The notes beneath the pieces are model-generated. The model searched no databases and was not told where the DNA came from. It saw nothing but the letters and a program-made list of their open reading frames with translations. A stretch of DNA of 64,000 nucleotides from Mayamaea pseudoterrestris (Eukaryota). Location: assembly GCA_027923505.1 (NCBI GenBank), contig BROI01000006.1, positions 930,001 through 994,000 of the forward strand, given 5' to 3'. Below, piece after piece: positions 13,427 through 47,033 of the stretch; position 1 is the first letter of the stretch, and the number at the start of each line of letters is the position of its first letter. A program made the position numbers and the translations under genes.

Positions 13427-15568
13427 TCACTTAATACCTTGCGTCAACGCAGTATCCGCAATCGTCAGACCGTGATTATGCAGCTCTTGAATTTGCTCGT
13501 CTGTAATTCCAATCATGTGCGCCAAGTCTCGCATCGTTTCCGAGTTTGGGCGGCTCTTGTCGAATGAAACATTGCCTTCACCTCTCAAAGGCGATTGAAG
13601 TGCCATGCCAATGCCGTGTCCAACACCTTTGAAAATCTTGCTTGCCCGCCGAGCATTCTTGCGCGGGCTCACAATCGGCCCCATTGTGTGCTTCATGCCA
13701 TCGTACGCTCGACTCAAACCACCGCCGTCGCTCATGCGGCGAGACTGACGCCGAGGCTTTTCCGTGATTGGCGCTTCGTTTGTCATCTGGGCACACTCTG
13801 CCATGCTTGCATCATTACCAGCACTGGCACTCGCCCGACGGCGAAACAGGCGACGTTCAGAACCTGGTGAGACTTGAAACATTGAGCTCAACTTTGCGAC
13901 AGTCTTGGATCCCTTTGTCGACGCAGTGTTCATTGTTGTTTGTGATGCTCCAGAAGCTGGCGTCGAATAAAGACTTTGCTTGACCGACTTTGCCTCGGCT
14001 GGCAGCGTTTGCAACTGTGTGAAAGCTTTCCCGAGCGCATATTTGGGCAATTGTATGGTATCCAACTGAAATTCTTGCGATGGAAATCCGCCAACGGAAT
14101 GGCGCCGCTCAATTCCGCTAGTAGCTGTAGATTGTGTCTCAAATGCGTGTTCATCGGACATGTCCACCAATGCAGCTCCTGTGCTCGCCCTTCGGTGCCT
14201 CAATGGACCGTCGTGCTGATTTGCGGATGGTGGTGCCTGCACTGGCGAGTTGTCCGGCTTTGACGTGGTGGGTTGTTCGACAGGTTTCCGTGCTTTACTG
14301 GCAGCTGCTATCGTCTTCCCGGAAGTTTGTTTCACCGAAAATTTTCGCGCCGCACCATTGCTTGAAGTTCTATGCGGAGACAGAGAACGTCTCTTATTAG
14401 AGCTATCGTTACTGGAATCTCTGGACCGATTCATGCTGCTGCTGCGCCCTTGCTCGGGTTGTGACTCGAGGCGAATAGCCAAATTACTTTTCAGATCACC
14501 GGCGGACACTAATCGCTCTTTCTTCGATCCTGGGGACGAAGATGAAGGTCGTGGTGACGACGAAGCTGGATGACGGTGGTGGTGTCTCTGTGATCCATCG
14601 TGCTTGAGGACTGAGGAAGTGGTCGCCTGTTTTGATTTACGGAGAATGCCAGGCTTGGCCTTACCCGGTTGATCCGACGACAATGGCAATTTGTCCAATG
14701 TTTGTTTTGTATGCTTGACCCGTTGCTCCTGCGTCTCTAGGGTGGCTGGACTGCTTGCAGCAGTGGCGTTGCTGGATACAACCTGGACATGTTTCCGTCG
14801 CTCCGTAATCACCGGTAAGTGAGACAACGACTTTGCTCTCTTTCTAATAGACTGTACTTGCATATTTCGTTGACGATGCGGCGAAATTTTCGTGGTGTGC
14901 CGCCGAGGATGGCACGCATTGGTTTCGTTAGCTATCGTCTCGAGAGATTGGGATGTGAAAATGTTTTCCGTCGTTGCAATTGGTTCGACGGTAGCCTTCT
15001 TCCAATCTAGTTCCGAAAACTTTTTTAACTCGTCAGCGCATTCTACTTCATTAGGTTCCTCTTGCGTAACTCCATCCTCCAATCTATACTGAAACTCGGA
15101 GCTTGAGCCTTGGTTCGCGAAGGCAGGTGCCGACTGGATGGATCTGATTGACGTATGCAAATTCTCGAGTCTGCTTCCATTCAGTATGGCTAGCTCAATC
15201 CGATCAATTTCTGATTGAATCATTCCCAGCTTCAGTTCATTGTCTTGACAAAATGCTTCGGATAGAATCGAGCGCATCTCCTGCTCAGAAGCGCTGTTGT
15301 CAAACTTGCTGCTGAATCTCTGGTGGTAGGTGAGTGTACTTGCATTCGATTCATCTTTATGCTCGTTCGTTTCTTTTCGTCTCGATGGACTTGACTTTCG
15401 GGTATGCCTCGGAGTGGAGCCGTTGCGATGGGAAGGAGGGCTTCGCCGCCTTGGCGATCGAGCGACGGATGGGTCTTGTTGTTTCACGATCGTCGTCATT
15501 TTGAGTGAGTTGCTGGAAGATAATCTAGTCGCAGGCCATTTAGACTCGTCACTTTGGATGTAACTCAT
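13427..15568 (-). CDS. Ser/Arg-rich low-complexity protein, clustered family member 1
   Basis: 713-codon intronless ORF. C-terminal GITDEQIQELHNHGLTIAD matches four other genes in the window. Confidence 0.82.
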   Translation of the reverse strand: MSYIQSDESKWPATRLSSSNSLKMTTIVKQQDPSVARSPRRRSPPSHRNGSTPRHTRKSSPSRRKETNEHKDESNASTLTYHQRFSSKFDNSASEQEMRSILSEAFCQDNELKLGMIQSEIDRIELAILNGSRLENLHTSIRSIQSAPAFANQGSSSEFQYRLEDGVTQEEPNEVECADELKKFSELDWKKATVEPIATTENIFTSQSLETIANETNACHPRRHTTKISPHRQRNMQVQSIRKRAKSLSHLPVITERRKHVQVVSSNATAASSPATLETQEQRVKHTKQTLDKLPLSSDQPGKAKPGILRKSKQATTSSVLKHDGSQRHHHRHPASSSPRPSSSSPGSKKERLVSAGDLKSNLAIRLESQPEQGRSSSMNRSRDSSNDSSNKRRSLSPHRTSSNGAARKFSVKQTSGKTIAAASKARKPVEQPTTSKPDNSPVQAPPSANQHDGPLRHRRASTGAALVDMSDEHAFETQSTATSGIERRHSVGGFPSQEFQLDTIQLPKYALGKAFTQLQTLPAEAKSVKQSLYSTPASGASQTTMNTASTKGSKTVAKLSSMFQVSPGSERRLFRRRASASAGNDASMAECAQMTNEAPITEKPRRQSRRMSDGGGLSRAYDGMKHTMGPIVSPRKNARRASKIFKGVGHGIGMALQSPLRGEGNVSFDKSRPNSETMRDLAHMIGITDEQIQELHNHGLTIADTALTQGIK

Positions 15569-16135
15569 CAATCAGAAAGCGAGCGAGCTGAGTATGGAGC
15601 TGATGTGCATCAGCAGTTGTCCGCAAGCACCGAGAGTGACAGCTTTGATCGTGAGGTTACAGCGACATTCGTCGAGCGATTAGTGCTGGCCAAAGGTTTT
15701 GCAAGACCCAATTGTTCTACCGGCGATCGTGAAATGACTCCACAGAAGATGAATCGAGTACTGTTATGTCTATAGTAATGACTCCTCGATGCGTGTCGCG
15801 TCAATTCGGATTGTTCTCTTAGCTACCGTAGGAGTATGCATAATATCATATGATGCTTTACTCATCCCAATAGCAAGAGGTTGCTGGTCCCATAGGCGGG
15901 CAACTGTGCCGTCAAGAACCGTGATTGGCTAACTGTAAGGTAGATGGAGTTCTAAAGCATCGACTGTCATTACATTTGTTCTTGACAACTTGCCATGGCT
16001 ATAACAACAAGGAACAAAGAACAGAATGAACAACTAGAATAAACATCATTTACCGCAAAATGGCCTGCATGCATGTATGCATTAATAAACCCTATACTAT
16101 TTGTTTTTGCTCATGCATCAAAGTCTGCTTTGTCC

Positions 16136-17134
<999 letters not shown>

Positions 17135-17559
17135 GATGGAGTCTTGAGCGAAGAACGATGTATTATAGAGCAAGGCAAGGCTGTCGACGGTTCCTCTACA
17201 GTTGTTACGGTATGTCGGATGGTGCGAAGCCTCGCAAGGATCCTCGTGGAACGAGTTGCGCGCGTGTCGAAGATCGCGGCTGAACCCTAACTTATCGAGA
17301 TGACTACGAAATTGGATAGCGACATACTTTATCGCGCGTTAGCTATCTCATATTTACTTTAATTTACAGCTCACATGCATCTTATAACACATTTTGCGGG
17401 TCAGGGAGGTGGTAGGATCAAGGGTTTTACAATGCCTGCAATGACTTTTGCGCGCTTCGTGCGCACAAACATTGCCGAACAGCAGATCCAGTATACTAAA
17501 TGAAAATTGACTACCAGTGGCCCAGGTAGAAGATGTCGCAGAAGCACCAATCATTTATG

Positions 17560-18993: not shown

Positions 18994-19807
18994 CTTGGGG
19001 TGTTGGACATACCCATAGTGTAGACCATTCCATGGCGTAGGCTTCCGGGCAGTCTTTTTTGCACCGTTTGAGACTATGCTCGTGGCAATGGCACTCCCTG
19101 GAAAGGTTTTGCCTGATTCATTGGGTTTTTGATGGTTTGGCATCCAGGCAGCCCCTTTTGCACCTTTTTTGAGTCTATTCTCATGTATGTCCATTGTAAA
19201 GCTTTGAAGCCAGACCCCCACAGCAAAGTTATTTCACTGTTCCTTGCGGAGTGCCTAAGATGTAGGTCCTAAGTGAGTCTGAGCTTGCATCTTGTCCAAT
19301 ATCAAGCATTTATGTGTTACCTTGCACAAACTGATGTTGATCTGCTCTATACTATGATAAGACATCGGGAAGTAGCAGCAGCACCATTGTCACATCGTTC
19401 TACTGGTACACTCTACAGTAGTGACATGCGAAGGGTGGGGCAGTGCCACCGACCGTCAGGTCAGCTTATTTGTCTGCTAATGGTCGAAGCACGTGTGGAG
19501 CAGCACAGGAAGAGATTTGGAGACAATGTGTTGGCTTGCCTCTTGTTCAGATCGGACTTGCTTGGAAATAAACGCAGTTACTAAATTATAGTGTCATCAA
19601 TAATAATGTCAACTAGTTATATATGTGTACTAGAGAGAGAGATGAGAGAGTTTATGTCTTGTGTTTTGTACAGGCGCATTTGTGCAAGGGTCGCGCAGAA
19701 AATGTCGCACGAGGGGTGTCCTCGTCGTTTTGGAATTTTTTAGATTATGTGCATGGCTGGCCGATGAAGGAGTGTATGTAGTTTTCATCAGCTTGGCTTT
19801 GTTCAAG

Positions 19808-21565
19808 CTACTTGTGCATTTTGGAAAAGGCAAAGATAGTGCCGCGGTGACCTTGGACAATCCGCATGGTTTCGTCAACGTAGAGAGTATCAACATAGGC
19901 CGTTCCGTGACCACCAATCGGACGCGTAAAGGTGTACTCCATGCTGCCATCCTCATTCATGTCCGTCGGCATGGTTGCTCCCATGAGCAACTTGACGGCA
20001 AGAAACTTGGCTTGCTCGGAAAGAGACTTGACTGGTGGATGGACGGCAAAGAGTTGCTTCCAGTTGGCTTGATCGGCTGGATCGTTATTTGGCTCGATGC
20101 GTCCGCCCGTAATCCAAACCGATTGCCTTGATGGGACCTTGGGATCGGGTAGCGTGTAGCCATATGTAGTCATGATCCCCTTGATAGGTCGGTGCACATC
20201 CTTGTTGGGAGCGTTGCCTTCCGGTGAGTCGCACTCAATGGTAAAGGCGGTAACGATGCTGTTAAACAAACAAGAAAAAATGGTGCAGTGTAAGCGAAAA
20301 TGTTGCGTGGAGTATCATATGCATCACCCGCAGTGTAACACTTACTTGTACGTTTGCAACAAAGCATCACCTTGATCCACCTCGTCCTTCAAGCTCTTTG
20401 GAACAATCAAGTGAGCATCCTGCGAGCGCTCATCCGCACCAACGTCATGCACTTGGTTGAAAGAACCCTGCAAGCTGCAAACCAAGCTTGTCGGTGAAAA
20501 CATGTCAAAGGACATGCGTCCCAATGTATACAACGGATCGCCTTGATCGGTTTCTCCAAGGCAGCCAAAGAAGAGTGGCTTGGTGAGCGACAACCACATT
20601 CCCTTGCTTGCCTGTACTTCAGAATGCGGCGAGGATGCTTGCGCCGTGGCGGCATAGTGCTGCTTCAAAAAGTCGAGACAGCTGGAAAGTTCCGCATTGT
20701 CGACAGTTTCGCCGCGCGTACTTGCCAGCGCCTTTAGCACGCCATCATGTGCGTCTCGCACTGCAATCTGAATGCTAGTGGAAAAAGTTGGTTGGCGAAT
20801 GAGTATATGTGATGGAGCTTGATGCTGCTGCTGCTGCTCGGGAAGAATCAAGTGAACGCTTCGCTGCTGCGTCTGGCTCGGTCCAGAGTCAACGCTCGAG
20901 TTGGCCGATGGAAGCGAGAGGGGCGAAAGAGTGGCGTTATCCTGGCGCGGCATCACGTCAGCTGGAATCACGTGAACATGCTGCGTCTGTAACTGCTGTT
21001 GCGGCTGAGGACGCTGCACGCGAACGGCAATGGGTCGAACCAGATGGGGTCGATGAGAAGCTTGCTGTTGCTGCTGCTGCTCTGGCTGATGCGAATCCAC
21101 ATGATTCTTGCGCTTGTTTTGATAATGATTTTCTCGCCGGCTTCGCTCCTGCAATACCATCATGATGGATCCTTCGTCATGCCCATGTTCTTGCTCTTCC
21201 TCCTCCATGTGCTCTGGTGATGGATTGCGGGCGCCGCTGGATCGATCCGGAAGACCCGCCATGGGGTGCCACTTTTCGTTCCATGCGTGTGCATCGACAA
21301 CGCCTTGATGAATGTGCGTTCCAACTCTCTGCTCGTAGGCAAGCTGATACAGATCACCAGCCGCTGCTGATACTTTGACCGCAACGGGACGATGAAGAAT
21401 CGCCGGCGGCGATGCAATCGCTTCGGTTTCCTGGTAGTCGACGAGCACCAGTGCGGGTCGAGGTGCAGACGCTGCTGCAAGTTCGCTCTGCGTGGGTACA
21501 TCCTTTGCCGCATCGGACCAGGCCATTCTCCGCTTGCTCGAGGGAATAATCGAGTCCTCGTTCAT
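19808..21565 (-). CDS. Uncharacterised protein with a Gln-rich N-terminus and a C-terminal PAP/fibrillin-like domain, 2 exons (21565-20346, 20258-19808)
   Basis: GTAAG...CAG intron at 20345-20259 joins LLQTY-N-IVTAF in frame. C-terminal DTLYVDETMRIVQGHRGTIFAF resembles the fibrillin YLDxxLRIxRG signature (by eye). Confidence 0.72.
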
Positions 21566-24036: not shown

Positions 24037-25506
24037 ATGGCCCAAGTCATGAACAACGAACTCATTAACTACTTGCTACCGTTAGGCTTTACTGTGGACC
24101 AGATGTTTGCGATTGGTCGTCAAGGAGTTCTCTCGTTCGAGGGACTCAAGATCTTCGATGACAAGGCTATCGATTCGGTCGCAGCTGGATGCAAGAACCC
24201 TGGAGGAACTTCTGTGAATGCCGCTGGGGCCACGATACGTGATCCTGGAGTGTTGCTTCCGGTTCCATTTATCCTGACGCTGAAGGCGCTCGCATATGGC
24301 TTACGTCATTGCGACAAGACACAAGTCGTCTTCAATCCGATCATTCACGGGGCGGCATGGCTTAACTCGCTCATGCACTTTAGAACGTTTATCATCAAGG
24401 CCTACACGGCTCCAACGGACAAGCCGGCGAAGATGACGAAGGTGACGCTTATCCGCGATTCATTTGACGCGATCATCTTGTACTTGTCAACTTTGCGCGG
24501 CGTTGGCGAAACGTTTCTTGCATACGTCGTTCGCGACGAGTATGACCCTGAACCGGAACCAATCGGAGGTTGGTTGTCGTTGGACAAGGAGATGATTGCT
24601 AGAGCACCACTGCAAGGACCATTGTATGAGGCCGACAATCAATCTGTCTATCTGATCTTGAAGAGTGTGTTTGGTGGAACCGACGCTTACTCTTGGATGA
24701 TGGCTCATGAACGGGCTGGCGACGGTCGCGGAGCTTATCGCAGCGTCTACGATCATTACATGTCGATATCCAGTCGTTCGGCCACAAGACAGAAAGCGGA
24801 AGCGACGATTCGTTCGCTTGTCTACAGTAACGAAAACAAAATGACGTTTGAGCAGTACGTGTCGAAACTCCAGCTTGCGCATACTGACCTTGAAAGAGAG
24901 GGACATCCGATGAGTGATGACGACAGAGTCTTACATCTCAACACTGGGATTTTGAGCGACGTGTTGTCGGCGGCGAAGCACAGCCACACTTTGGATGAAG
25001 CAAGAGAGCCGGATGACCGTACTTTGGACACTTTTGATAAAGTTGTCAGCTTTTACCAGTCCATTATCTCCAAGCACCTGGCGAGTTCTGCAACTGCAGC
25101 GAAGCGTCGCAACGTTTCGTGGGCAGGAACTACGCATGAAGGCGGAGGCCGCGGAGGCGGTGGGCGCGGCGGACGTGGAGGCCGAGGCGGACGTGGCGGA
25201 AGAGGCCGCGGCGCCGGCAGAAACGTGCCAGCAGCCGAATGGAATAAGCTCAGCCATGAGCAGAAGGCCAAGGTCATTAGTGATCGCAAGAAGAAGCAGA
25301 AGACTGGCAATGGTAGTGGTGGTGGCGGTGCTGGCGGAACTCAAGGAGCAGGCAGCTACAATTCCCAAATTGCTGCGCTCAACTCCTCGATGCTCCAAGT
25401 CCAGCAGCAGCTTGCGGAGCGTGCTGAAGGGACGGATGAAGCGCCTCCTGCGGGAGGCGGCGGCAGTGGTACGCAGCTTGGCGCAGCCATGGGCGGACGC
25501 CGTTGA
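24037..25506 (+). CDS. gag: Retrotransposon Gag
   Basis: Position upstream of pol, copia-Gag-like motifs (LAYVVR, DGRGAY, FEQYVSKL), an RGG-rich tract and EWNKLSHEQK. Confidence 0.87.
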   Translation: MAQVMNNELINYLLPLGFTVDQMFAIGRQGVLSFEGLKIFDDKAIDSVAAGCKNPGGTSVNAAGATIRDPGVLLPVPFILTLKALAYGLRHCDKTQVVFNPIIHGAAWLNSLMHFRTFIIKAYTAPTDKPAKMTKVTLIRDSFDAIILYLSTLRGVGETFLAYVVRDEYDPEPEPIGGWLSLDKEMIARAPLQGPLYEADNQSVYLILKSVFGGTDAYSWMMAHERAGDGRGAYRSVYDHYMSISSRSATRQKAEATIRSLVYSNENKMTFEQYVSKLQLAHTDLEREGHPMSDDDRVLHLNTGILSDVLSAAKHSHTLDEAREPDDRTLDTFDKVVSFYQSIISKHLASSATAAKRRNVSWAGTTHEGGGRGGGGRGGRGGRGGRGGRGRGAGRNVPAAEWNKLSHEQKAKVISDRKKKQKTGNGSGGGGAGGTQGAGSYNSQIAALNSSMLQVQQQLAERAEGTDEAPPAGGGGSGTQLGAAMGGRR

Positions 25507-25587
25507 CTCATTGGGGTCGACAATTGTAACGAGGAGGGAAGTCAAGAGCCGGGGGACAAGGACAATAAGGAAGTAAGAGAGCAAAGC

Positions 25588-35351: not shown

Positions 35352-38054
35352 ATGACTACTACGTCATTGAGCAATCAACTGAATGCTGCGGCGCGAGAAC
35401 AAGAGGAAGAAGAAAATTGCAGTATTCAACGATCACTGCACTGTCGGCAAAGCCATGGATTGAACCAGATTGCTACATCTCCAAATCAAAAGGATGAGAG
35501 CCGCCAAAAGCTTCCAGCTAGTGGTGGAATCTCCATGGAAAGCAGCAGCAACAATGGGCACTTCGCCGTCAGTACGGCGCCATTGACGCCACCTCTATAT
35601 GAATCGCACTCTTCCCTTCAGAGTCAGACGGAGGAAAATGCATTTCTGGAGGAGCTGAATGACTCATTGACGCTTGACCAAATATGGCATTCCGACTTGC
35701 TTGATCAAGCTGCGGCTACTGCAAATGGGACGGCAAATGCTACTGGAAATGCTCAAAGTAAAATTGCTGGAGACGAGGCCAATATACCTGCCACTCCAGT
35801 TGCAACGACGAAACCAAAACGCAGAAAGCAACGCATGACTGAGCGACTCGATAAGCGTTCGCAGTCGGCTCCTCAACTCGGCAGTGACGACGATGAAGAA
35901 AGCTTTGATTTTAGCGAGGTGGAGTGGAAGGATCATGACGTTGCGGCAAAGTCGGCGCTGCTGGGCAACAAGCTTGAAATGATTTCAAAGTATGCGGCTG
36001 GCGACATGTGCGGAATGACGAGTCATAGATCGCCGACGACGCCGCCGTCATTGAATTCAAAACGATTGTCGAATCAGCTGCGTGCTCGTGCACGCCGACA
36101 ACACACCAAGACGTTGTACTCGTCTGACTCGGATTTAAGAAGACGACACCAAGGTGGAGACGATGAGAAACTTGACAAAAGTCCCCCGTCGGCTCGACCA
36201 AAGATGGAAACGAATCGCAAAAAGATCAAGCTCCGCGCATGCGACTTGGGGCTGACTTCTTTGAAGAACATGGGTCCAGCGGCTTTGCAGGAGGCCATTG
36301 CCAAGTGGAAGGATGAAAGTGGGCACGTTGGTGTCGTCAAGAGCATTAAAGTGCAAAAAGTCAAGGACGACGTGGCTGATAGCGCTGCAGCGGAGCAGCA
36401 AAGGCGGCGCGCACTGGAGGAGAAGCTTTGGTCGTCCGGTTTGGAAAAGGTTCCATCGGACGAGCGGTCTCGTGCGCGCAGTATCAGCAGCGAAAAGACT
36501 GTCAAGCGCAGCAACAGCGCCACTCGGTCGAATGCGCGGAGGAGCCTACTGGACAAGTTAAATGGGAAGACATTAAAAAGCAACCAAAAGCGAAACGCAA
36601 TGTCGCCCTATGGTGCCTTGACCAAGGCTGGCCTGCGGTCAGTTGGGTCGCTCGATGATTCATTACACGGTCGGCAACTTGCGTCGGAAATGCAATTAAA
36701 ACGACCGGAGCGATCTGCCAGCGAAGATTTAGTCAAGTCGGCTGGCGAAATAGTAAGCGAAATTGACCAGAAAAGCAAGTCTTTGCTGGCATCGCCGAGA
36801 CGAACATCAACGAGTGACCCTGTGAAGCAAGTTGGACCGGCGGTCTTGTATTCACCGCAGCTGATTGTTGCTCCATTTGAAGGTGGTGACGGAGCAATTT
36901 CTTCAGTCACTTGTTCCAAAAAAGGCATGAAGATTCGGCGGATAAAAGATCCGCCAGCGATACCGCCATCGCCTGTTGGTGCTTCATTGAAATTACAACT
37001 GCCCAAGCAGCTCCCGCTTGCAGTGACGGATGAGTGGAATGATTCCCAACGACAACGAGCAAAGTCAATGACAGAATCGAAGCTTAAACAAGCTGTGGAA
37101 AGGACACCAATTGCCAACACCAAGGCACGTCTGCGTTCGAAGTCAACAGGAAGACATGAGAAACAGCCTTATAAAGTGACTAGCGTGAGCACTGCTACTT
37201 CTGGTCGCAAGGTCAAGGACGACGTGAACCAGGAAATTGAGGAATTGACACCTCGAAGGAGGAGTACCTCAAATTCGCGGTTGGCTGCTAGTTCGAAAGA
37301 TGGCGATGCGAGACGAGGCCGTAGCGTAAATGGTGACGGTATTCAGTCTAGCGACAATAAACCAAAACGTTCCGTCTCCGCTGGGCGAAAGCAAGCGGGA
37401 AGCACATTGTCTGAAAAACGAGATGGATCTGTTCAGCTGATGCCAAAGAAGCCATCGACAAGAGATGCTGATGAAACAAGGGGAAGATGCGAAACTTCGT
37501 CAAAGATGTTACGATCTCGCGGTAGATCGGCTGGACCTGCGCCGCGAGCAAGCCAAGAACCTAACACTTTCCAGAAAAACGAGAAAAAGCGAAGCAAGAG
37601 TGTTGTTACCTTTAACAAAATGGATATGGAGGATCGAATAACTGCCAAAGCTAACAAAGAAGTGCTAGGAAATCGGCCCCCAACGCGCCAAGCGGCACAC
37701 TTCCGGTCTGATGTAGGAGATTTGCTACGAAGTCCGTTTAGAGCCGTCAAGGGTGCTATACGCAGAGTGACAACAAAAGGTAAAATCAATTCCGACAACG
37801 ATGCACCTGAGTTACCCGTAGCAGTTCGCATCGATCAAGCGCCGCCAAGTAAAGTGCCGCAGTGTATGGATGATTCTAATTCTACAGACCCTGCCAGCGG
37901 AGCCAGTATCTGTGAGCATCGTCGGTGGTCAGACTTTTCACAGTATGGAGACGACGTGAAGGCGAAACTTGGGCGTGCTGGCGTTTCAGAAGATATGATT
38001 GAGTCCTTGCGGCGAATGGGGCTAATTATAACGGATATAGGTGGAGATGCGTAA
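35352..38054 (+). CDS. Ser/Arg-rich low-complexity protein, clustered family member 3
   Basis: About 900 codons from the first ATG (35352). C-terminal GVSEDMIESLRRMGLIITD. Confidence 0.84.
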   Translation: MTTTSLSNQLNAAAREQEEEENCSIQRSLHCRQSHGLNQIATSPNQKDESRQKLPASGGISMESSSNNGHFAVSTAPLTPPLYESHSSLQSQTEENAFLEELNDSLTLDQIWHSDLLDQAAATANGTANATGNAQSKIAGDEANIPATPVATTKPKRRKQRMTERLDKRSQSAPQLGSDDDEESFDFSEVEWKDHDVAAKSALLGNKLEMISKYAAGDMCGMTSHRSPTTPPSLNSKRLSNQLRARARRQHTKTLYSSDSDLRRRHQGGDDEKLDKSPPSARPKMETNRKKIKLRACDLGLTSLKNMGPAALQEAIAKWKDESGHVGVVKSIKVQKVKDDVADSAAAEQQRRRALEEKLWSSGLEKVPSDERSRARSISSEKTVKRSNSATRSNARRSLLDKLNGKTLKSNQKRNAMSPYGALTKAGLRSVGSLDDSLHGRQLASEMQLKRPERSASEDLVKSAGEIVSEIDQKSKSLLASPRRTSTSDPVKQVGPAVLYSPQLIVAPFEGGDGAISSVTCSKKGMKIRRIKDPPAIPPSPVGASLKLQLPKQLPLAVTDEWNDSQRQRAKSMTESKLKQAVERTPIANTKARLRSKSTGRHEKQPYKVTSVSTATSGRKVKDDVNQEIEELTPRRRSTSNSRLAASSKDGDARRGRSVNGDGIQSSDNKPKRSVSAGRKQAGSTLSEKRDGSVQLMPKKPSTRDADETRGRCETSSKMLRSRGRSAGPAPRASQEPNTFQKNEKKRSKSVVTFNKMDMEDRITAKANKEVLGNRPPTRQAAHFRSDVGDLLRSPFRAVKGAIRRVTTKGKINSDNDAPELPVAVRIDQAPPSKVPQCMDDSNSTDPASGASICEHRRWSDFSQYGDDVKAKLGRAGVSEDMIESLRRMGLIITDIGGDA

Positions 38055-38095
38055 ATGCAAGTGATGAAATTATTGTAACCATGGTTTGCAAACTA

Positions 38096-41000
38096 TTAAG
38101 ACTCTGTTATCTTAAGTCCGAGCTTATGCAGCCGCGTAAGTTGATCTTCCGTGATTCCTGCTAGTGCAACTTTCCTGAACATGGGGTCCTCTGTTATTTC
38201 ACTGACAGTTCTTTCGGGAACATGGCGGTAGTCTTCGTAAAGCGGAATCATGAGCTCTTTTACACCGACGCGGTAAGTCTTGGTTCGTGTTTTTGCTTCC
38301 GGTGGACGGGCCACTGGGGTCGAAAGGGAATCAGATGTACTTCCAAGATTTGTAGATGATTCATGTTGATTATCAGTCTTGCTGGGTGTTACCATTGCTG
38401 CTTTCGCTGATGTACTTTCAAAATGACGCATGAGACGAGGCAAATCTTTTATGGGCGACAAATTTGTAACTTCAGCCGTAAGATCCATGTGTGAACCTGA
38501 GATATCATGAGAGCAAGATCCACGCGACAATTGCAGCCCTCCTCTATCATCTTTTGCATAGTTGGAGCTTGTTGTCGACTTTCTCATGCGCGATCCGACA
38601 AAATCATAGGAGAAGTCACTCGAAGATCCGGTATGACCATCGTCTTGGACTTTGCTTTCTGAATGCGGCGGTGGACTACTTGTCGTGGTGCCATTGCTAT
38701 GATCCACTTGGGATGTTCTCTTGTCTATACTGCGTCTACTTTTTGATCTTGACTTGCGAACACTTTTGACACTCGTCTCCATTCCTTCTTGATAGCCATT
38801 GTTCTGTTTGTCGGGTGATCGAATTTTATCCTTCTCTATACCACGAGGAGGATCCAGCGTATTGTCCTTGCGGCCGCCGTTGCTTGAATCACTTCTGCCC
38901 GAACTCTTCGACATATTCGCCGAAGGATTCAACTGTTTGCCAGGATTCAAAGATCGGTTCCCGGTGCTCCTCCCTCTACTCTTTTTAACTTCCGTAGAGT
39001 TGCCCTCAAAAAAGACGGATGCCTCTTTCATCTCGGCTCTGTTCTGATGCGCGGTCCACTTCTTCCATGCATGTTGTACGATCGCAGGATTCATTTCGGT
39101 GGAAGATAACCCCAGGTCGCTCGCTTTCATCTTGATCCGCTTAGCTTTTGGCTTTTTTCCCGATGACTCATGCGCAGCAGCTTTTTTAGACATGGGATCA
39201 ATATCGGCACTGCAAACAGACTTTTGACGGCGAAGCCGGTTTGGTATCAGGGAGTTGTCCACCAGCATAGGTTGTAGTTCCGCAGGACAAAGGGTTTGTC
39301 GCCGGCTTCCAGTGGGCAATCGAACGATAGTTTTCGTCTTGGACGTCGATAGTGTCATTTCATCATTGAGCAAACCAGGTGCGCTCTTTGACCTAGCCAT
39401 GCTATTTCGACGATCAGCTTTCCATGAAGGCGACGAGTCCACTTTGCCTTCGACGCGGCTGCATCTTAAGTTTAAGGTCGAACTATGCATAACAAGTGTC
39501 CCTGGCTCAGGAACGTATCTCAGCGGATTTAAAGAAACCGAAGTTGTTGATGGAAATTCTTTATCAGCATTCATTTCGATAGAGGCAGCGCAATCCGTGA
39601 GTAAAGCAGCCAACGAGGAGGGATCCTCATTAACCTTTGCTCGCAAGAGAACCGACGACGGAGGCAAAGTGGGTGTCATATCCTGGACGAGTGAATTGAT
39701 GTCTGATGCCAAGGTTGTCATGCCGCCCGGTGAATTGAATACCGAAAGCTTATATTGGCTTTGCGCATCGTGTAATTTCCTTGGTAGGATGCGCATGTTA
39801 CGCGGTTGCCCAATGGACTCGTTTAAATCTGCTTTCTTGTCAGGAAACTCCTTGTCTTGTCTTATATCTGCCGTCTGTGCTTTACGGACTGCTGGAGAGG
39901 GATCAATTGCAGGCTGGCTTATCCTGTCGTCACTGGTCAACAACTGCGATTGAGCAAAGCCTTGACGAACATATCCTGCTTTTAAAAGCATTTGTATCCC
40001 TTGGCCCTGCTCACTTTTATTGCTCTTATTCTTTTGAACATGCAAATTGTTTGCAAGGCTTATGCTTTCGACCTCATTTTGCTCCTGGAATGTCAGTTTC
40101 GTAGGGACTGAGTGTTGCTTCCTCAGACCACGTTCCGTCCGGCGCATATTCCTGCTTCCACTGAGCGAAGCCGCCACGGACTGTTGCTTCCGCCTACGAA
40201 CTTTCTTGTCCGGTGAAGTCATAAGCTGCGACGTTGATGCGCTCAAATACGGCAATTCACCGAAAGATTTAGTGTTATTATTAACATTTTTTGCTGTCAT
40301 GCTACGCTTCTCCGCTTGCGCAGGCGTCCATAGAATCTCCGCAGCTTGAGCCGCATCTCCTTTGTTCGCCTCCGAAGCCATTCCATCTGCTGGGGCCCAG
40401 TCAATATCAGTCGATTCCTCATGTTGCGTGCTGACGGCATCACTACGTGGCGCAGCGACATTATCTTTAACCTGAGTCCGCCGACATGTTGTATAGGAAT
40501 CGGTAGTCGCTGCTGGCAATTTTGTGTCAGGATCACTATTTCGTTCTTCCAAATGCCGCAAGGCCAGCGAAGCCTCAGACCCGGGCGAGAAAACCATACC
40601 ATACAAACTCTCGTACAGCGCAGCATGGGATTGCTCATCATCCCCTGTCGGAGAAGCCTCCTGTAGCAGGTCACACAATGGAACCGGTGGCAGATTGAGC
40701 GACGACACCGTAGATTTCTCTTGATAGGTTGATGGCGTCAAAATCCCAAGCGTTGCCGTCGTAGCGCTTGTAGCGTCAACCATTGAAGCATACGTGTGAA
40801 GGGAGTGTAACTGTAGCTCGGAAGATTCCCCATCACTCATGGAGGCAAATGTATGCTGCGACAGTTTCAACATTGATGCCGGTGACCAGACAATGTCAGA
40901 AGCGGATACATCGGCAAATGTTTGCGCGTCATTTGCCGCTGTTGCCGCCGCCGCTGCCTCATGCTTCGCACCAACCTTCTGAAAATACGAATGCAAAGGT

Positions 41001-42082
41001 TGCGTTTGCGACTGCAATGTTGAAAAGGACTGGCGTTTCCTTGCATAGTTGCTTGCTCCATGCTGCATGTTGGGCACTGACATCTGCTTGGCCATTCGCT
41101 TTGACTTGGCTGGCTTGCTGTCGGTAGCCGAGGCTTGTCGAAACGATCTACGAGCACCTTCTTTGACAGGAATAGAACTATGTTGCATGGAATCTCTTCT
41201 CTCCGGCAAGTGTGGAGCTGATTGCTGCTTTTTCATGGATTCGCGTAACAATGCGCGTCCCTTGGTTGGAATAGACGTAGGCGTTGAAAAAGGTAACGAG
41301 ACTCGAGACCCTGTCGACGACTTATAGCTCGCCGCCTTGTTTGTAGCAATCGTTGTAGTCCCAGCAATATCTCTCTTGGATGCATCTTTAAAAGAACGAT
41401 CACAAGCGATCTGGATATTCGTTCGAGCTTCACCTTTGCCAATTCTATTTGCTGCGGCACTCAACGACCCTCGCCGCAGTGGCGCCTTCAATGAAAGGCA
41501 CGAGGAAGAATTCCTTCCTGTTACAGCAAACAGGTCTCGCTGGCTCAAGGAAATATGCTGCGCCGACGAGAGGACCACCTGTGGGCGCTCGCAGACGCTA
41601 TCAAGCTCACTGACGGTTGTTTCGTCCAAATCAATCATAATGTTTGGTCCGCAACTCAGCTGAGTACTGGAGGCTGTATTGTGCGAGGATGGTTCCTTTC
41701 GTTCGCATTTGTAGTCTAGAATGGGTGTTGATCCATACAGGTGAAGCATCTTTGGCAAAGATTCGTCATCAACTTCGGCTGCAGCTGATTCGAGTTCAAC
41801 CCCCGCCATGCTTGCTTCTTCGATAATCTCGTCTATTTCTGCTTCCAACCGCCGAGTCGATTTAGGCTGTATACATTCGTCAAGTGAAGGACTAACAACC
41901 GAAAGAACCTGGTCCGTTTCAGTTGGAGCAGTATCTTGCTGCGGCTGAGGATTCATGGTCAAGGCGCGACGTAAGTTGGTGCGGCTTAGAATGCTGCCCA
42001 GTCGCCATTTCTTGGGCGATTGGGTGCTGTCGGCAGGCGAGTGCATCAAGTCGCTTTGGCTATTTGACATCCACCAATCCAT
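38096..42082 (-). CDS. Ser-rich low-complexity protein, clustered family member 4
   Basis: About 1328 codons from the first ATG (42082). C-terminal GITEDQLTRLHKLGLKITE. Confidence 0.85.
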   Translation of the reverse strand: MDWWMSNSQSDLMHSPADSTQSPKKWRLGSILSRTNLRRALTMNPQPQQDTAPTETDQVLSVVSPSLDECIQPKSTRRLEAEIDEIIEEASMAGVELESAAAEVDDESLPKMLHLYGSTPILDYKCERKEPSSHNTASSTQLSCGPNIMIDLDETTVSELDSVCERPQVVLSSAQHISLSQRDLFAVTGRNSSSCLSLKAPLRRGSLSAAANRIGKGEARTNIQIACDRSFKDASKRDIAGTTTIATNKAASYKSSTGSRVSLPFSTPTSIPTKGRALLRESMKKQQSAPHLPERRDSMQHSSIPVKEGARRSFRQASATDSKPAKSKRMAKQMSVPNMQHGASNYARKRQSFSTLQSQTQPLHSYFQKVGAKHEAAAAATAANDAQTFADVSASDIVWSPASMLKLSQHTFASMSDGESSELQLHSLHTYASMVDATSATTATLGILTPSTYQEKSTVSSLNLPPVPLCDLLQEASPTGDDEQSHAALYESLYGMVFSPGSEASLALRHLEERNSDPDTKLPAATTDSYTTCRRTQVKDNVAAPRSDAVSTQHEESTDIDWAPADGMASEANKGDAAQAAEILWTPAQAEKRSMTAKNVNNNTKSFGELPYLSASTSQLMTSPDKKVRRRKQQSVAASLSGSRNMRRTERGLRKQHSVPTKLTFQEQNEVESISLANNLHVQKNKSNKSEQGQGIQMLLKAGYVRQGFAQSQLLTSDDRISQPAIDPSPAVRKAQTADIRQDKEFPDKKADLNESIGQPRNMRILPRKLHDAQSQYKLSVFNSPGGMTTLASDINSLVQDMTPTLPPSSVLLRAKVNEDPSSLAALLTDCAASIEMNADKEFPSTTSVSLNPLRYVPEPGTLVMHSSTLNLRCSRVEGKVDSSPSWKADRRNSMARSKSAPGLLNDEMTLSTSKTKTIVRLPTGSRRQTLCPAELQPMLVDNSLIPNRLRRQKSVCSADIDPMSKKAAAHESSGKKPKAKRIKMKASDLGLSSTEMNPAIVQHAWKKWTAHQNRAEMKEASVFFEGNSTEVKKSRGRSTGNRSLNPGKQLNPSANMSKSSGRSDSSNGGRKDNTLDPPRGIEKDKIRSPDKQNNGYQEGMETSVKSVRKSRSKSRRSIDKRTSQVDHSNGTTTSSPPPHSESKVQDDGHTGSSSDFSYDFVGSRMRKSTTSSNYAKDDRGGLQLSRGSCSHDISGSHMDLTAEVTNLSPIKDLPRLMRHFESTSAKAAMVTPSKTDNQHESSTNLGSTSDSLSTPVARPPEAKTRTKTYRVGVKELMIPLYEDYRHVPERTVSEITEDPMFRKVALAGITEDQLTRLHKLGLKITES

Positions 42083-43338
42083 AATTTCGTTTCTTTCCGC
42101 TATTTGCAAAAGGGCTATGTCGTCAATGCAGCTTGCTGATCGGATTTGTTGTACGAGTAGCTTCAAGGAGGGATCGGACTGGCTGAGCTCTGTTTAAAAG
42201 CTTTATGAGAGCATGCACTATCCAATCATATTTTTGTTCCCAAATAGGTTGTAGCTGTTAGTTGCTGCGTTGGTCCCTTTTTACTGGTAGACCAAGCCAT
42301 CTCATGTTGCAGCATTTTTTCACGAGCAAAGCAAGTCCAACCTTTCGCCACGCCACTTTTCATCATGCCATGCTGGCTTCGATGGATCAATGGGGCAATA
42401 CTCGCTGGTCATTTTTAGGTGTTTTATCAGTCGTGCCAAAATCTTAGAACGTCACAACGTCAGAAGGAGGACAAGTTGCGACTGGATAGAGAAGATTGAA
42501 TTGTTGACGCCAAGAATGGATTAACAGTAAAAAATCACTTGATGAACTATGTTGGTATACTTGGGGAAAACAAGGAAAGAGACTAGGAAGTCGGATGGGC
42601 AACCTTGCTCCAAATCGTCGTCATTATGCGGATCATTGCGAATTGACTTGACAAGTTCCTCGTCAACGACCATCGACCATTGGCATTATAACAGTCAACC
42701 TTGAGTCAAGTTCTATACATTTCGCTCGGATAACATGGCAATGGATTTTTTGCAAGACATGGGATGAATGGGTACATGGCCTGGAAGTTGGAGCGGGCCC
42801 CATGCCGGTCGTTTGTTCTTCACGCAAAGGTGCTCCACTGCTCCATTAATGGATGTGTACGACTTGATCAGTATCTACGCGTCTACGCATCGGATGGCAG
42901 AATCAATGTCGTCGCGGCTGTCGCACCAGATTTGACTGCCAGTTCAAGCCAGCCATGATAGCAGAAGATGGGGGTCCACGGTCCACTAACACATACTGGA
43001 TAAGTGCGGTTCCACCCGTGGCATCCGTGGAGTGCGACGCGAATGGATGAACGATGTTACGGAGAGTATTGGACGCCTAAGTTTTGGGAGCGACTTGCAG
43101 ATACCATGCCGGCGAGTTAAAACGTTGGCGTTTTATAAGGGGGGAATTGCGATGTATATAATATATCATCTTGGTCTGTTGCGCGCTAGGCAGCCCATAT
43201 TTTGTCTTGTTTGTTCTGGTTTGGCATCGAGATTCGCAGTATTTATGTAGACTACAAATACGTTAAGCCAACCGATATGTAAATGCTACATAAGCTTAAT
43301 CAATCATTGGTTCAGCGAGTCGAACAAGCCCACCAACA

Positions 43339-44847
43339 CTACTCACTCACCTCTTGGATGCTCACCAACTCTGCTGCCAGCCCCTCATGTATAAGACTTC
43401 CAAGCGCCGCTGCCGCTGCAACTGCTGCTCCGTCGATATCGCAAGGTTTTTCTTCGTCATTCTCAAGTGCCTGAATAAAGTACATGACTTCCTTATCGTC
43501 GCCTGGCATTGCGTTTGCGATTGGCGGAGACTTGGCAATTGAATGACAATCATTATGCACTGGTAAGCCTTCCTCTTCCTGGCCAAACATGACCGTAGAG
43601 TCACTCGCGAAAGTGAAAGAATTAAGCATCTCATTGTGCGCGTCTTGATCATTAGCAGCATACACATCAGGATCATCATTCGCCTTCTTCTCCTCCCCAC
43701 TTTCGATCTCATCGACAGTAAGATTTGCCGCTGCTACTGCACCCGTAATCAACGCAGATTGCGATCCATTTGCATTTTTCAAAGATGTTTCTAGTTCATG
43801 GCGAGCGTACAGAAAGCTCTTGAAGGCTTGTTCAAGATGGAGCTGCGTTGCAATCAAGTATTTATTCGAACTTGAGTGTGCGAGTTGGCACTGGTGAAAA
43901 TTTGCCGAAAGCTTGTTAATGCTTATATTCAACGTATCAATCTCAGTGTCTTTAAGCTCCAAGACTTCTCGTAGCGCATGAACATGTTGCTGCGACTGTT
44001 GTAGATCACTTTGCGTTTGTTCAAACTTGTGCTCGAGCTCTCGATTCTTCACCTTCCATGTTTCTTCTACCAGATGAAAGGCGTTAATGATTGTCTCCTG
44101 CTCGGATAACTGCGACGTCAAGTTCAATATTGTTCCAGTCAATTTGTCAGCTTCTCCTCGTAAAACGCTGTGTCGCTCATGTTCCACTCTGATATCGTCG
44201 TCATGTTGCTTCCGCATCGCCTCGAGCTCATTGGCATGCTCCTGCTCGACTTGCTCTAACTCGTTTTGATGTGTCAAACGGACCGCCTGATATGTTTCGG
44301 TTGCCCGCGTCAAGCTCTCCAGCACAATCTTTTGATCGTCATACTCCAAAAGCTCCGTTTCATGCAACACATCCAGAGGAGTCCGTCCCGATTGATCCGC
44401 CGCTTGTAAGGCGGAAACATTGGCGGCAATGAGTAGATTCACAACTTCCGGAGCCGCTCCACACTCCACGGCCAGATGCAGCGGCAAGGATCCAAACTGC
44501 GTCGGCTTGGATGCACTCTCGGAAAAGACGCTCAACAAGTGACTCACGAGCCAGGCTGGTGCCTGCCGTCGACAAGCTTCGTGAATGGGGAGTCGTTGCC
44601 AGACGCTCCAGACAAAGGTTGTTCCAATCGTGCCAGTGCTCTTGATCCACGTTCGGACTTGGCGAGGCGACTCCTTGGCAATGGAGAAGGCAAGCTTCCA
44701 ATTGCTTTCCTCAATCGCGGCGAATAGAGGACTTCCGCTGTTTTCGTGGTAGAATGCGAATTGTTCCAAGACAATTTCTTCGGTGCCGTCGTCATTTTCT
44801 TTGTCGTCACCATTGCGATTGTCGTTCGCTTGTCGAATGGATTCCAT
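43339..44847 (-). CDS. Ankyrin-repeat plus coiled-coil protein
   Basis: Ankyrin-type motifs SPLFAAI, RLPIHEAC, SLPLHLAVECGA and GRTPLD, followed by a long heptad-rich segment. Confidence 0.85.
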   Translation of the reverse strand: MESIRQANDNRNGDDKENDDGTEEIVLEQFAFYHENSGSPLFAAIEESNWKLAFSIAKESPRQVRTWIKSTGTIGTTFVWSVWQRLPIHEACRRQAPAWLVSHLLSVFSESASKPTQFGSLPLHLAVECGAAPEVVNLLIAANVSALQAADQSGRTPLDVLHETELLEYDDQKIVLESLTRATETYQAVRLTHQNELEQVEQEHANELEAMRKQHDDDIRVEHERHSVLRGEADKLTGTILNLTSQLSEQETIINAFHLVEETWKVKNRELEHKFEQTQSDLQQSQQHVHALREVLELKDTEIDTLNISINKLSANFHQCQLAHSSSNKYLIATQLHLEQAFKSFLYARHELETSLKNANGSQSALITGAVAAANLTVDEIESGEEKKANDDPDVYAANDQDAHNEMLNSFTFASDSTVMFGQEEEGLPVHNDCHSIAKSPPIANAMPGDDKEVMYFIQALENDEEKPCDIDGAAVAAAAALGSLIHEGLAAELVSIQEVSE

Positions 44848-45344
44848 TATCTAAAACGCTAATGTATAGCTGCAGCTACTTTCAACAATAAGATGTACCG
44901 TAGGAGCGAATCGTCGTTTGCGATGTTAGACACGGATGATGTTGTATGCGTTGATGCGGCGGCGCCACACGGAATCATCGAAACTCATAATCCTTGACGC
45001 CATTCACCACGCGGACGTAACACGACGGAAACTTGTAATGTTCGCTCCTCCATGCCAAGCGTGTCGGAGACGTTTCGAAAAAGGTGCTTGGTGGAACGCG
45101 TGATGAACGTTGCCGTCACGCTTCGATGAGAGAAAATAATGTGAGCGCCAAACGGCTCATGCGTTCCAACCGCCACAGCCACTTTGCTCTCAAGCGATCG
45201 AAAATTACGGTCGGTTTTCTCGTTCAGCTTAAAAACAATCCAGATTGCTTTGACCAAATTTAATTTAATAATAGATGATGGTCAGCTTTCTTTTAGGAGC
45301 AGCAATCGAATGCATGGTGGTTGTTTCAAGACGCTATTGCGAGC

Positions 45345-45388
45345 AAGCCTGGACGTTCGACGAAGCCTGGACATTCGACGAAGCCTAG
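45345..45388. repeat. 18-bp mini tandem repeat (about 2.4 copies)
   Basis: AAGCCTGGAC(G/A)TTCGACG at 45345 and 45363, partial at 45381. Confidence 0.7.
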
Positions 45389-45623
45389 ATAAAACAGCTG
45401 GTCATTTTTAAAACGTCAATGACGTTGTGGCAAGACTCGCGGAGTGTGACGATGGGTTGCAGTTTCGCACAATGGCCATGAACAAAACGGACTGGACCGG
45501 ACTGCTTGACATTGAAATCATACCCTCAGATACCGTCGTAAAAGCCAAGTAAGCCGATAGATCCATCACACTCAGTACGCTACATCTGTAAAGCCCGTCA
45601 GTACAAACGACCCTTTTTCTATC

Positions 45624-47033
45624 ATGACGAGCAGCAGCAGCCAGAAGGAATTCACCTTTCCAGTCGCCAGCACCAAGAATAGCCTTCGCGTCGTGCGACC
45701 GACGCGCAACCTTGGCGAGGCGCTCAAGGCAACGGCAAGCAGCAGCAAGAGCCGCAGCGGATCAGGAACCACGGCAAGCATGTCCGTCTCGTCGCGCAGT
45801 GAAATGTCGAGTGCTTCCAAAAAGTATACGCTGGCGCCGACGCGAAACAGTAGTAACAGCAATCATCATGGCAGCAACTCATCGCTATCCAATGCAAATA
45901 CTGCCATGCAGCGACGAAAGGAGCGACGGCAGCAGTCGGCATCGTCTGGAAAACCCATCGAGGCGCTCCCCGGCGGATCGTTTCACGCGTCCTTTCACTA
46001 TCAATCTACTTCAGAGCCTGACGACGATGACGACGACGCCTTTGAGAATCAAGACGAATGGTGGGATGAACAACATCATGGAACATCTTCAGACTTTGCA
46101 GCTGCAACGAATGAACGTAGAAATTCAATTCAGGTTCGAAAGACCAAGGTGCATCCAGAGGAATTTGGTGCCAACAATAACAAAAGTACAGCTAGCTCTT
46201 TGTTGAACGCTCGCCACAAGGAATCATTAGCAGCTGCACCAAAAGCGTCATCGAGTCGAAGACTAGATCAGGCACTGGCGAGTCAAAAGCCGCTGGCTGC
46301 GACTCCAGGCGACTGCTGCAAGTCGGTGCAAAGCAGCATGAGCTCGCGCGGCCGCAAACTCGAAAGCAGCGGCAGCAGGGCTCCAACCTCGCGCAGCGTG
46401 TCACGGAGTGGGCGCTCGAGTCTTGCCGTTCCAACGTCCAGTCTACTGGGAACATCATCCGTCGTCGAGTCGCCAGCGAAAGCATCATCGACACGTACTA
46501 GCGTAACTCGATCTTCGCGGCCCCGCGGCAAGAGTGTGGAAGCGCCGCGCGTCAATACGTTGCTGAGTCATGGGCGACCGCAGCGAAAAACTGGAGCTAC
46601 AAGTAGCGCGGGATCGGTCGTATCCGCGCCGGCGCAAATGAATGGACGGGTCAAGGTTGGTCGAGTGGCGCGGCCGAGTGGCAATGCAAGTAGTAGTACA
46701 AGTGCAGCCAACACGAGTGGCACGACTACTTCATCATCGTCATCAGCTGCGAATCGATATGGGTTCCCATCCTGTTTCTCTGGCAATGGCAGCTGTCGAA
46801 ATCTGGAAGCCTCCACGCATACAGTTTCCTTTGATCCATTTGCAGTGTCAGAGCACGAGCAGCGCCAACACCAAAAGGAACGCACGGCGCAACTTCCGCT
46901 GCAAGTTCAACGCAAGGGCAAGTATAGTGACAAGGAAAAAATGCTTCGCAAAATTAAAGAAATTGGAATATCAGAACACATGCTACAGAATATGAAGCAG
47001 GCTGGTTTGGTCATTACGGAAACGAAACGATGA
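45624..47033 (+). CDS. Ser/Arg-rich low-complexity protein, clustered family member 5
   Basis: 469-codon intronless ORF. C-terminal GISEHMLQNMKQAGLVITE. Confidence 0.82.
   Translation: MTSSSSQKEFTFPVASTKNSLRVVRPTRNLGEALKATASSSKSRSGSGTTASMSVSSRSEMSSASKKYTLAPTRNSSNSNHHGSNSSLSNANTAMQRRKERRQQSASSGKPIEALPGGSFHASFHYQSTSEPDDDDDDAFENQDEWWDEQHHGTSSDFAAATNERRNSIQVRKTKVHPEEFGANNNKSTASSLLNARHKESLAAAPKASSSRRLDQALASQKPLAATPGDCCKSVQSSMSSRGRKLESSGSRAPTSRSVSRSGRSSLAVPTSSLLGTSSVVESPAKASSTRTSVTRSSRPRGKSVEAPRVNTLLSHGRPQRKTGATSSAGSVVSAPAQMNGRVKVGRVARPSGNASSSTSAANTSGTTTSSSSSAANRYGFPSCFSGNGSCRNLEASTHTVSFDPFAVSEHEQRQHQKERTAQLPLQVQRKGKYSDKEKMLRKIKEIGISEHMLQNMKQAGLVITETKR

Follow-up and report, generated by a model that had tools for sequence, protein, structure and literature searches.

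A shared C-terminal module marks a family of disordered diatom proteins and may mediate their self-association

Why do five large, disordered-looking proteins encoded close together in a diatom genome end in the same short piece? The question is raised by a 64,000-nucleotide stretch of Mayamaea pseudoterrestris DNA (assembly GCA_027923505.1, contig BROI01000006.1, positions 930,001 to 994,000), hereafter the window. A first-pass annotation, made from the letters alone, had seen in it an old, locally expanded family of disordered scaffold proteins with an unnamed C-terminal motif of 19 aa. Both the family and its module prove to be real, old and undescribed. The window contains the local members of this family, five genes for basic, Ser/Arg/Lys-rich, largely unstructured proteins. 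So far the family is placed, by extrapolation, in raphid pennate diatoms. As to what the module does, we see about an even chance that it is an unnamed self-association module of raphid diatoms, carried by disordered proteins with several motifs; this reading comes from a structure model and is weighed below against its rivals.

All five genes are present in the window as standard-code open reading frames (ORFs), on the strands first assigned to them, and encode 713, 818, 900, 1328 and 469 aa. Together with the neighbouring exon assigned to one of them, they are:

13427..15568, minus strand: P0001 (type 1), 713 aa, basic and S/R/K-rich; exact sequence among public proteins; on the disordered side of the charge-hydropathy boundary.
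30693..33149, plus strand: P0002 (type 2), 818 aa; ORF and translation.
35352..38054, plus strand: P0003 (type 3), 900 aa; exact public sequence; on the disordered side of the charge-hydropathy boundary.
38096..42193, minus strand: ORF of P0004 (type 4), ATG at position 42082; publicly annotated as exon 2 of MPSEU_000415900 (1864 aa).
43348..44847, minus strand: annotated exon 1 of MPSEU_000415900, an ankyrin repeat and then a coiled-coil-like stretch; predicted join to exon 2.
45624..47033, plus strand: P0005 (type 5), 469 aa; orthologues P0007 and P0052.

Sequences identical to P0001, P0002, P0003 and P0005 stand in the public database, so four of these ORFs are public gene models. All five had been described as intronless, which does not hold in the public model for the gene at 38096–42082. 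A word-indexed search with the five C-termini returned the hypothetical protein MPSEU_000415900 of Mayamaea pseudoterrestris (P0006, 1864 aa), 100% identical to P0004 over the query. By tblastn, its residues 1–500 map to 44847–43348 at 100% identity, and residues 500–1864 to 42193–38099. The junctions show a GTGAGT donor and an AG acceptor, and hence an annotated intron of about 1.16 kb (42194–43347). The N-terminal part of P0006 carries the Pfam domain Ank_5 (1.9e-07 on the ORF, 3.2e-06 on P0006), followed by a weak match to the coiled-coil type Filament model, at 0.013 and below its cut-off. According to the genome paper, the gene models of this species were made with funannotate from RNA-seq (PMC9724779). 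The ankyrin/coiled-coil part and the disordered part, annotated as one spliced gene, could be two separate genes. Among the variants listed further below, the 1-base indels at 42320, 42427 and 42443 fall in the annotated intron and fit non-coding DNA.

What the five proteins share most clearly is their end. A strict regular expression of the consensus first proposed has exactly five matches in the six-frame translation of the window; the five strings are as originally quoted, and each sits 1–8 residues before a stop. With the helix that precedes them, they form the following modules:

13454..13549, minus strand: C-terminal module of P0001, PNSETMRDLAHMIGITDEQIQELHNHGLTIAD, then 8 residues.
33039..33134, plus strand: C-terminal module of P0002, ELTPGAMSRIKDLGITPEQLALLNNMGLKIAE, then 4 residues.
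37941..38036, plus strand: C-terminal module of P0003, QYGDDVKAKLGRAGVSEDMIESLRRMGLIITD, then 5 residues.
38102..38197, minus strand: C-terminal module of P0004, ITEDPMFRKVALAGITEDQLTRLHKLGLKITE, then 1 residue; the piece folded singly and as two copies.
46926..47021, plus strand: C-terminal module of P0005, SDKEKMLRKIKEIGISEHMLQNMKQAGLVITE, then 3 residues.

A profile built from the five 35-mers scores its members, which are its training set, at 54.7–62.0 bits; among the remaining 1329 six-frame pieces the top score is 4.9. With leave-one-out profiles, the left-out member reaches 17.7–27.8 bits, whereas 1000 shuffles of its 35-mer peak at 7.3–11.3 and non-member pieces at 3.6–5.6. The shared C-terminal motif is real and no product of composition. 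Its length was underestimated: the shared end was seen rightly, but the conserved piece covers about 30 aa rather than 19 and takes in the preceding helix. Across 27 non-redundant modules the consensus reads [ML]-[FLY]-x-K-I-[KR]-x-A-G-[IV]-[TS]-x-E-Q-L-x-x-L-x-x-[AM]-G-L-x-I-[TA]-[ED], with G23, G36, L37 and I39 invariant when positions are counted along the 42-aa P0004 piece used for modelling.

The module is not confined to the window. An exhaustive profile search of 1.84 billion representatives with the 5-sequence alignment A1 returned 50 proteins at E ≤ 0.001. Five are the window proteins themselves, and 17 match over a single stretch, at or near the C-terminus of S/R/K-rich proteins. Most of the others match over several stretches; the 18 of these that were scanned are bacterial-type repeat proteins (M56/BlaR1 peptidases, helix-turn-helix repeats, cadherin-like proteins) with 3–10 bits per unit and are not counted as members; P0026, P0031, P0010 and P0019 were likewise left out of the family. 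Word-indexed searches added P0052–P0060, including FisN_11Lh290 and FisN_11Hh290 of Fistulifera solaris, which end ...NSDEIYSKIKHAGITQEQFLALTQAGLTITNEE. The module ends about 27 further S/R/K-rich proteins, three of them from Fistulifera solaris or of its type. At most 8 residues follow the motif in 28 of the 32 collected members, and 13, 17, 17 and 72 in the remaining four. Extra N-terminal domains occur only in P0006 (Ank_5) and P0040 (zf-MYND).

Over the 32 aa of the module, each window protein finds its best outside match at an identity of 0.44 (P0001, with P0056 and P0046 tied), 0.72 (P0002, with P0035), 0.72 (P0003, with P0017), 0.59 (P0004, with P0013) and 0.84 (P0005, with P0007). Identity to the best paralogue within the window is only 0.34–0.38 for each. 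As the window modules are nearer to outside proteins than to each other, the five types predate the splits from those organisms, and the cluster is old, with no recent burst. The named carriers, Mayamaea (Sellaphorales) and Fistulifera (Naviculales), moreover belong to two diatom orders, and the age first attributed to the family is borne out. So is its local expansion: all five genes lie within 34 kb, and word-indexed protein searches, in which matches need shared 5-residue words, returned no other Mayamaea-named protein. This suggests that all members of the family in this species may lie within this 34-kb stretch.

Other searches for relatives gave little. A search of metagenome contigs for syntenic loci produced pattern matches for alignment A3 and P0053, none confirmed, and the last 50 residues of P0005 had no usable match in the ESM Atlas. 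The gene identifiers and six motif strings occur in no paper of the literature searched, nor does any of six gene identifiers occur in the supplements searched for the genome paper. A literature search on disordered diatom proteins with a conserved C-terminal dimerisation piece listed nothing relevant.

Are the five ORFs genes at all? Variants were taken between the window and contigs of four sequencing runs of unknown kind, which cover the annotated intron and intergenic DNA too and contain no canonical splice joints; the list used here is a sample, made up of those 40 of the 401 substitutions and those 12 of the 40 indels that have the best support. Within the coding sequence of P0002, 18 of the 26 listed variants are synonymous and 8 non-synonymous, and the three listed in its motif are all synonymous. 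The listed indels within that coding sequence (3/3) are multiples of three, as are all four listed inside ORFs, against one of the eight outside. Between P0005 and P0007 identity is 49% overall and 89% over the last 19 residues.

The ORFs might still be mis-predicted or non-coding, their common end being the remnant of a repeat or a chance of composition. The bodies indeed contain no Pfam domain, the runs of unknown kind provided no RNA evidence, and the DNA around them also contains a Copia element and a 356-bp satellite. Yet the frames stay open for 469–1365 codons; the listed variants inside them show a synonymous excess and only frame-keeping indels; other organisms have orthologues, in which the module is conserved best; and shuffles and other six-frame pieces score far lower than the modules. 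A mutual identity of only 34–38% also means that the modules are no recent DNA copies. We regard the idea of non-functional ORFs as extremely improbable.

Between the proteins, the first-pass annotation had seen no long-range similarity, which proves too strong. Pairwise BLAST of the complete proteins yields nothing but long alignments of low identity, driven by composition, and was replaced by a window-based island search that included outside relatives. This reveals two further short islands common to the family, in the same order along the chains. Island 1 is acidic, F-S-[DE]-[IVL]-[DE]-W; island 2 is basic, K-K-x-[IV]-K-[LV]-[RK]-A-x-D-[LM]:

14990..15025, minus strand: acidic F..W island of P0001, KKFSELDWKKAT, 23.8 bits.
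31002..31037, plus strand: acidic F..W island of P0002, DSEFSDIEWTDG, 25.1 bits.
35901..35936, plus strand: acidic F..W island of P0003, SFDFSEVEWKDH, 20.4 bits.
46026..46073, plus strand: acidic W island of P0005, DDDDAFENQDEWWDEQ, containing DEWWDE.
31293..31328, plus strand: basic K-K-x-[IV]-K-x-R-A-x-D island of P0002, KKRVLKVRASDV, 14.3 bits.
36216..36251, plus strand: basic island of P0003, RKKIKLRACDLG, 23.0 bits.
39110..39145, minus strand: basic island of P0004, AKRIKMKASDLG, 21.5 bits.

The acidic island also occurs in the outside protein P0048, as DSNFSDIDWKDS, and the basic one in the outside proteins P0029, P0034, P0040, P0046 and P0048; profiles of both islands find no further carriers in the window. 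Likenesses of the two islands to the W-acidic motif of kinesin light chain, the acidic-W motif of Arp2/3, LC3-interacting motifs and nuclear-import motifs were considered and are not claimed. Sharing of the terminal module and of two collinear islands shows common descent of the five proteins, which may rightly be called a family.

In the rest of the bodies S makes up 13–20%, R 7–11% and K 6–8%, the net charge is +28 to +70, and each protein has 8–31 R-x-x-S/T sites. The charge-hydropathy boundary separates all five, on its disordered side, from four folded proteins encoded in the window. In the AlphaFold model of P0005, computed with four relatives, the predicted local distance difference test (pLDDT) is below 50 for 366 of the 469 residues. 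The sole block with pLDDT of 73–83 spans residues 441–460, which is the module, with helices at 435–447 and 451–459. The disorder first presumed is thus supported, and in the P0005 model the module stands out from it.

Two of the five types have features of their own. Further islands are conserved in type 5 only (P0005, P0007 and P0052): SQKEFTFPVAS at the N-terminus, LPGGSFHASF, KSVQS, GSLLG, RVKVGRVARP, and FDPFAASEH directly ahead of the module. In type 4 (P0004 at about 38198–38224 on the minus strand, P0034, P0029, P0013 and P0053), a stretch R-x-[IV]-S-[DE]-[IL]-[ST]-[DE]-D directly precedes helix 1. Its variants, ERTVSEITED, ERTVSEISDD, ERDISDVSND and TRSISDISDD, resemble a site for a basophilic kinase followed by sites for acidic kinases, and the stretch may be a phospho-switch beside the module.

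Does the module belong to a named domain? The five whole proteins match no Pfam-A family (24,736 models) at E ≤ 1. At E ≤ 10 the five modules draw just two matches, Homeodomain (0.052) and TAF (0.065), both on one sequence and below their cut-offs; among 22 modules, no family at E ≤ 10 is found on more than one. A profile search of solved sequences gives weak matches only, to the designed repeat dTor_9x31L (4yxz; summed E of 0.00059) and to 23 residues of the RxLR effector Avr-vnt11 (7xp9; E of 0.0038). With the 42-aa monomer model, Foldseek finds nothing at E ≤ 0.001, its weak rows being Cro and BldC at E of 2.4–8.4, and a wide structural search with VIA-align reaches a best Z of 2.5, at the low power of a 42-residue two-helix piece. 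The domain remains unnamed, as originally stated.

These weak rows touch on a further reading, in which the module is a degenerate helix-hairpin-helix or helix-turn-helix that binds nucleic acids, and the basic bodies bind chromatin or RNA. A net charge of +28 to +70, K-K-x-K stretches resembling nuclear import signals, the Cro and BldC rows, and a helix-G-I-[ST]-helix pattern that draws bacterial proteins with helix-turn-helix-like or helix-hairpin-helix-like repeats into the profile search would all agree with it. Helix-hairpin-helix motifs typically have a G-hydrophobic-G hairpin with a second glycine. The turn of the module reads G-[IV]-[TS]: of 27 non-redundant sequences, 17 have T and 10 have S where the second glycine would stand, and none has glycine. 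At E ≤ 10, no module of the 22 has a match to a Pfam model of either kind, HHH_5 (PF14520) being confined to bacterial repeat proteins. Searches of solved sequences and folds gave nothing significant, and the bacterial matches are sums of many weak repeats of 3–10 bits each. We hold a nucleic-acid-binding module to be very unlikely.

Other small helical domains were considered and set aside. No UBA or CUE profile is among the weak matches of the 22 modules; these are three-helix bundles, whereas in the models of the module two helices lead into an extended end. LEM appears on one of the 22 modules at E of 0.16 and SAP, likewise of the helix-extension-helix type, on none. The villin headpiece (VHP, PF02209) bears some likeness in sequence, S-D-[DE]-D-F...G-M-T beside S-D-D-x-M-F...A-G-I-S, and matches none of the 22 modules at E ≤ 10. 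By our reading, helix 1 of the module is two residues longer than its counterpart in VHP and the part after the turn five residues shorter.

The 42-aa module of P0004 was modelled with AlphaFold. Alone, it reaches a pLDDT of 72.4 and a predicted template-modelling score (pTM) of 0.41, with helices at 14–21 and 26–34. The layout is a first helix, a tight G-I-T/S turn, a second helix, a second glycine and a short extended G-L-x-I-T-E stretch. Modelled as two copies, the piece gives an interaction prediction score from aligned errors (ipSAE) of 0.35, 0.35 and 0.36, against 0.01 for the best of three controls, with a partner pLDDT of at least 71 and 100% contact agreement between runs. The mark for pairing, 0.32, is reached by 21 of 30 proteins solved as one-chain pairs and by none of 23 solved as single chains; on eukaryotes, by 17 of 29 pairs and none of 30 single chains, and by only one of the seven among them without an older solved relative.

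In this model two modules would join as a symmetric dimer. The contacts of least expected error, 39:39, 39:37 and 40:37, place the terminal G-L-K-I-T-E stretches antiparallel about the invariant isoleucine, Ile39. Helix 2 of each copy would pack against its partner's turn and helix 1, through contacts of residues 28, 31 and 32 with 22–24 and of residues 35 and 32 with 18 and 19. The invariant G23, G36, L37 and I39 all lie within the predicted interface. All five paralogues share the residues of the interface, which makes mixed pairs plausible. Once dimerised, the module would make each disordered chain two-armed. The helix-helix-strand arrangement first guessed agrees with these predictions, as two helices are modelled and the terminal stretches are predicted to pair. 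Of the docking or oligomerisation function then proposed, the second alternative is favoured by this one structure prediction, which passed its controls, and the first is a rival.

According to that rival, the module is a docking peptide, unfolded alone and folding onto a conserved partner, that would gather the five disordered proteins at one place or machine. It would explain why one end piece is common to five paralogues with differing disordered bodies, and why the motif is so often followed by at most 8 residues. Being hydrophobic at about 8 of its 30 positions, the module is too small to build a stable core by itself, and the confidence of the monomer model is only moderate. Among the neighbours of the genes, which are unrelated enzymes, a transporter of the triose-phosphate type and a Copia element, there is no candidate partner, and the two-copy model already buries the invariant residues. 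We consider a docking peptide possible though less likely than not; docking and dimerisation can also both hold.

Against self-association itself, several points weigh. At 0.35, the pairing score lies just above the mark of 0.32 and expresses no more than the confidence of a model. It concerns two copies of one paralogue, folded with the alignment unused, by a tool without calibration on disordered chains. Columns of the predicted interface are more conserved than the others (mean entropy of 1.40 against 2.45 bits, one-sided Mann–Whitney p = 0.002), a contrast that is partly built in, as the interface spans most of the motif. The end position kept in 28 of 32 members is of no obvious need to a dimer and fits a docking peptide at least as well. 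Members are carried by two named species only, which makes "raphid pennate diatoms" an extrapolation. Finally, the run contigs, covering intron and intergenic DNA alike, are uninformative on transcription and on the 1.16-kb intron.

With self-association retained at its even chance, a bolder proposal can be built on it, though we find it unlikely. The module would be a new minimal helix-helix-strand dimerisation fold that arose in raphid pennate diatoms, in effect an inverted ribbon-helix-helix, through which five or more disordered paralogues form homo- and heterodimers. The two-armed linkers would assemble into a combinatorial network or condensate tuned by phosphorylation, serving some structure of the lineage, for example the raphe or gliding apparatus or the cytoplasmic side of valve morphogenesis, with the ankyrin and MYND members as anchors. 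The scaffold role first ascribed to the family proteins is likewise something that we can only infer.

Lineage-specific "hypothetical" disordered proteins fill diatom genomes, and five of them now have a signature, three collinear islands that include the terminal module. The module also provides a profile with which to search other diatom proteomes. If the pairing is true, the module is a very small, previously unnamed self-association unit, and the disordered linkers would form a network specific to raphid diatoms. If the module is a docking peptide, it is a ready-made bait for the partner.

The surroundings of the five genes are unrelated to them. A domain scan of the window finds unrelated enzymes, transporters and a Copia element between and around the five, just as first described; an M18 aminopeptidase, a transporter of the major facilitator superfamily (MFS), a helicase and an aconitase B are among the neighbours. 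The following features were recorded:

33382..34824: a triose-phosphate-transporter-family protein, among the family genes.
24037..29769: a Copia-type retroelement between P0001 and P0002, with an ORF at 25588–29769 (RVT_2, 6.1e-12) and an upstream ORF at 24037–25506.
47230..52432: a satellite with a 356-bp unit, 14.7 tandem copies and 91% matches, beginning about 200 bp past the stop of P0005.
2202..3947 and 4029..5069: nitrate reductase domains over two ORFs.
6060..7589: a MoaA-type gene of molybdenum-cofactor synthesis, encoding a radical S-adenosylmethionine protein, beside the nitrate reductase ORFs.
10182..11096 and 11099..11953: the MFS transporter, over two ORFs, near the nitrate reductase and MoaA genes.
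20342..21565, 60296..62383 and 62873..63949, all minus strand: ORFs of 407, 695 and 358 aa with no Pfam match and with neither the module nor the islands.

Ty1-Copia elements are the main repeats of the Mayamaea pseudoterrestris genome, according to the genome paper (PMC9724779). In the run contigs, the bin 46936–47500 has a word depth of 2658 in X1 and 724 in X2, against about 7–40 and 1–14 elsewhere (107 and 21 in the first bin), so that the satellite unit seems highly abundant in those runs. The region 2202–11953 may be a nitrate-assimilation neighbourhood. No Rfam match is found in the 64-kb window.

How does the module compare with systems already known? A bacterial repeat is strikingly like it in spacing. 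At their C-terminus, M56/BlaR1-like proteins (P0009, P0014, P0019 and others) have 4–7 tandem units that read L-x-x-[LM]-[KR]-M-x-G-V-T-P-E-Y-I-x-x-M-R-x-A-G-F, and no Pfam family covers them well. Within one such unit, hydrophobic residues, glycines and a T-x-E cap stand at almost the same distances as in the diatom module, a likeness that may reflect descent or convergence. The bacterial repeat was nonetheless rejected as an identity for it: it requires several tandem units, of 3–10 bits each, after an M56 domain in membrane-anchored, peptidase-like proteins, whereas the diatom proteins have no M56 domain and a single, terminal unit that ends in L-x-I-T-E. P0010 (2552 aa), one of the proteins left out of the family, has at least 16 near-identical repeats with RVAKLKAAGLSDAMIAKMLASAKP, which give rise to many summed Pfam matches that look spurious, SAM_DprA and mTERF among them.

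With dTor_9x31L (4yxz) and Avr-vnt11 (7xp9) the module shares a helix-(A)G-I-S-helix corner, K-[LI]-[KR]-x-A-G-I-S-x-E-x-[LF]. Both matches cover helix 1, the turn and half of helix 2, without the G-L-x-I-T-E stretch, and are internal to larger folds; the scores are too weak for claiming common descent.

The p53-type tetramerisation domain is a strand-turn-helix of about 30 residues, in which an antiparallel pair of strands forms and the helices pack across it. The module resembles it in its size of about 30 residues, in its attachment to a long disordered region, in its turn glycine and, in the model, in the contacts 39:39 and 37:41. The order of its elements is reversed, with one helix more, and there is no match in sequence or fold.

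A further comparison is with the ribbon-helix-helix of Arc, MetJ and CopG, where the strand comes first, the ribbon reads DNA, and the dimer is held by paired strands and helix packing. The module was rejected as a ribbon-helix-helix proper, which needs the order strand-helix-helix with an N-terminal ribbon. Here the order is helix, helix and extended end; the strand comes last and closes a disordered protein of 400–1800 residues. Fold searches with the monomer model, of low power for so small a piece, returned no ribbon-helix-helix chain, their best Z being 2.5. What the module would have in common with these dimers, if the model is right, is the same three elements, joined by paired strands and by helix packing.

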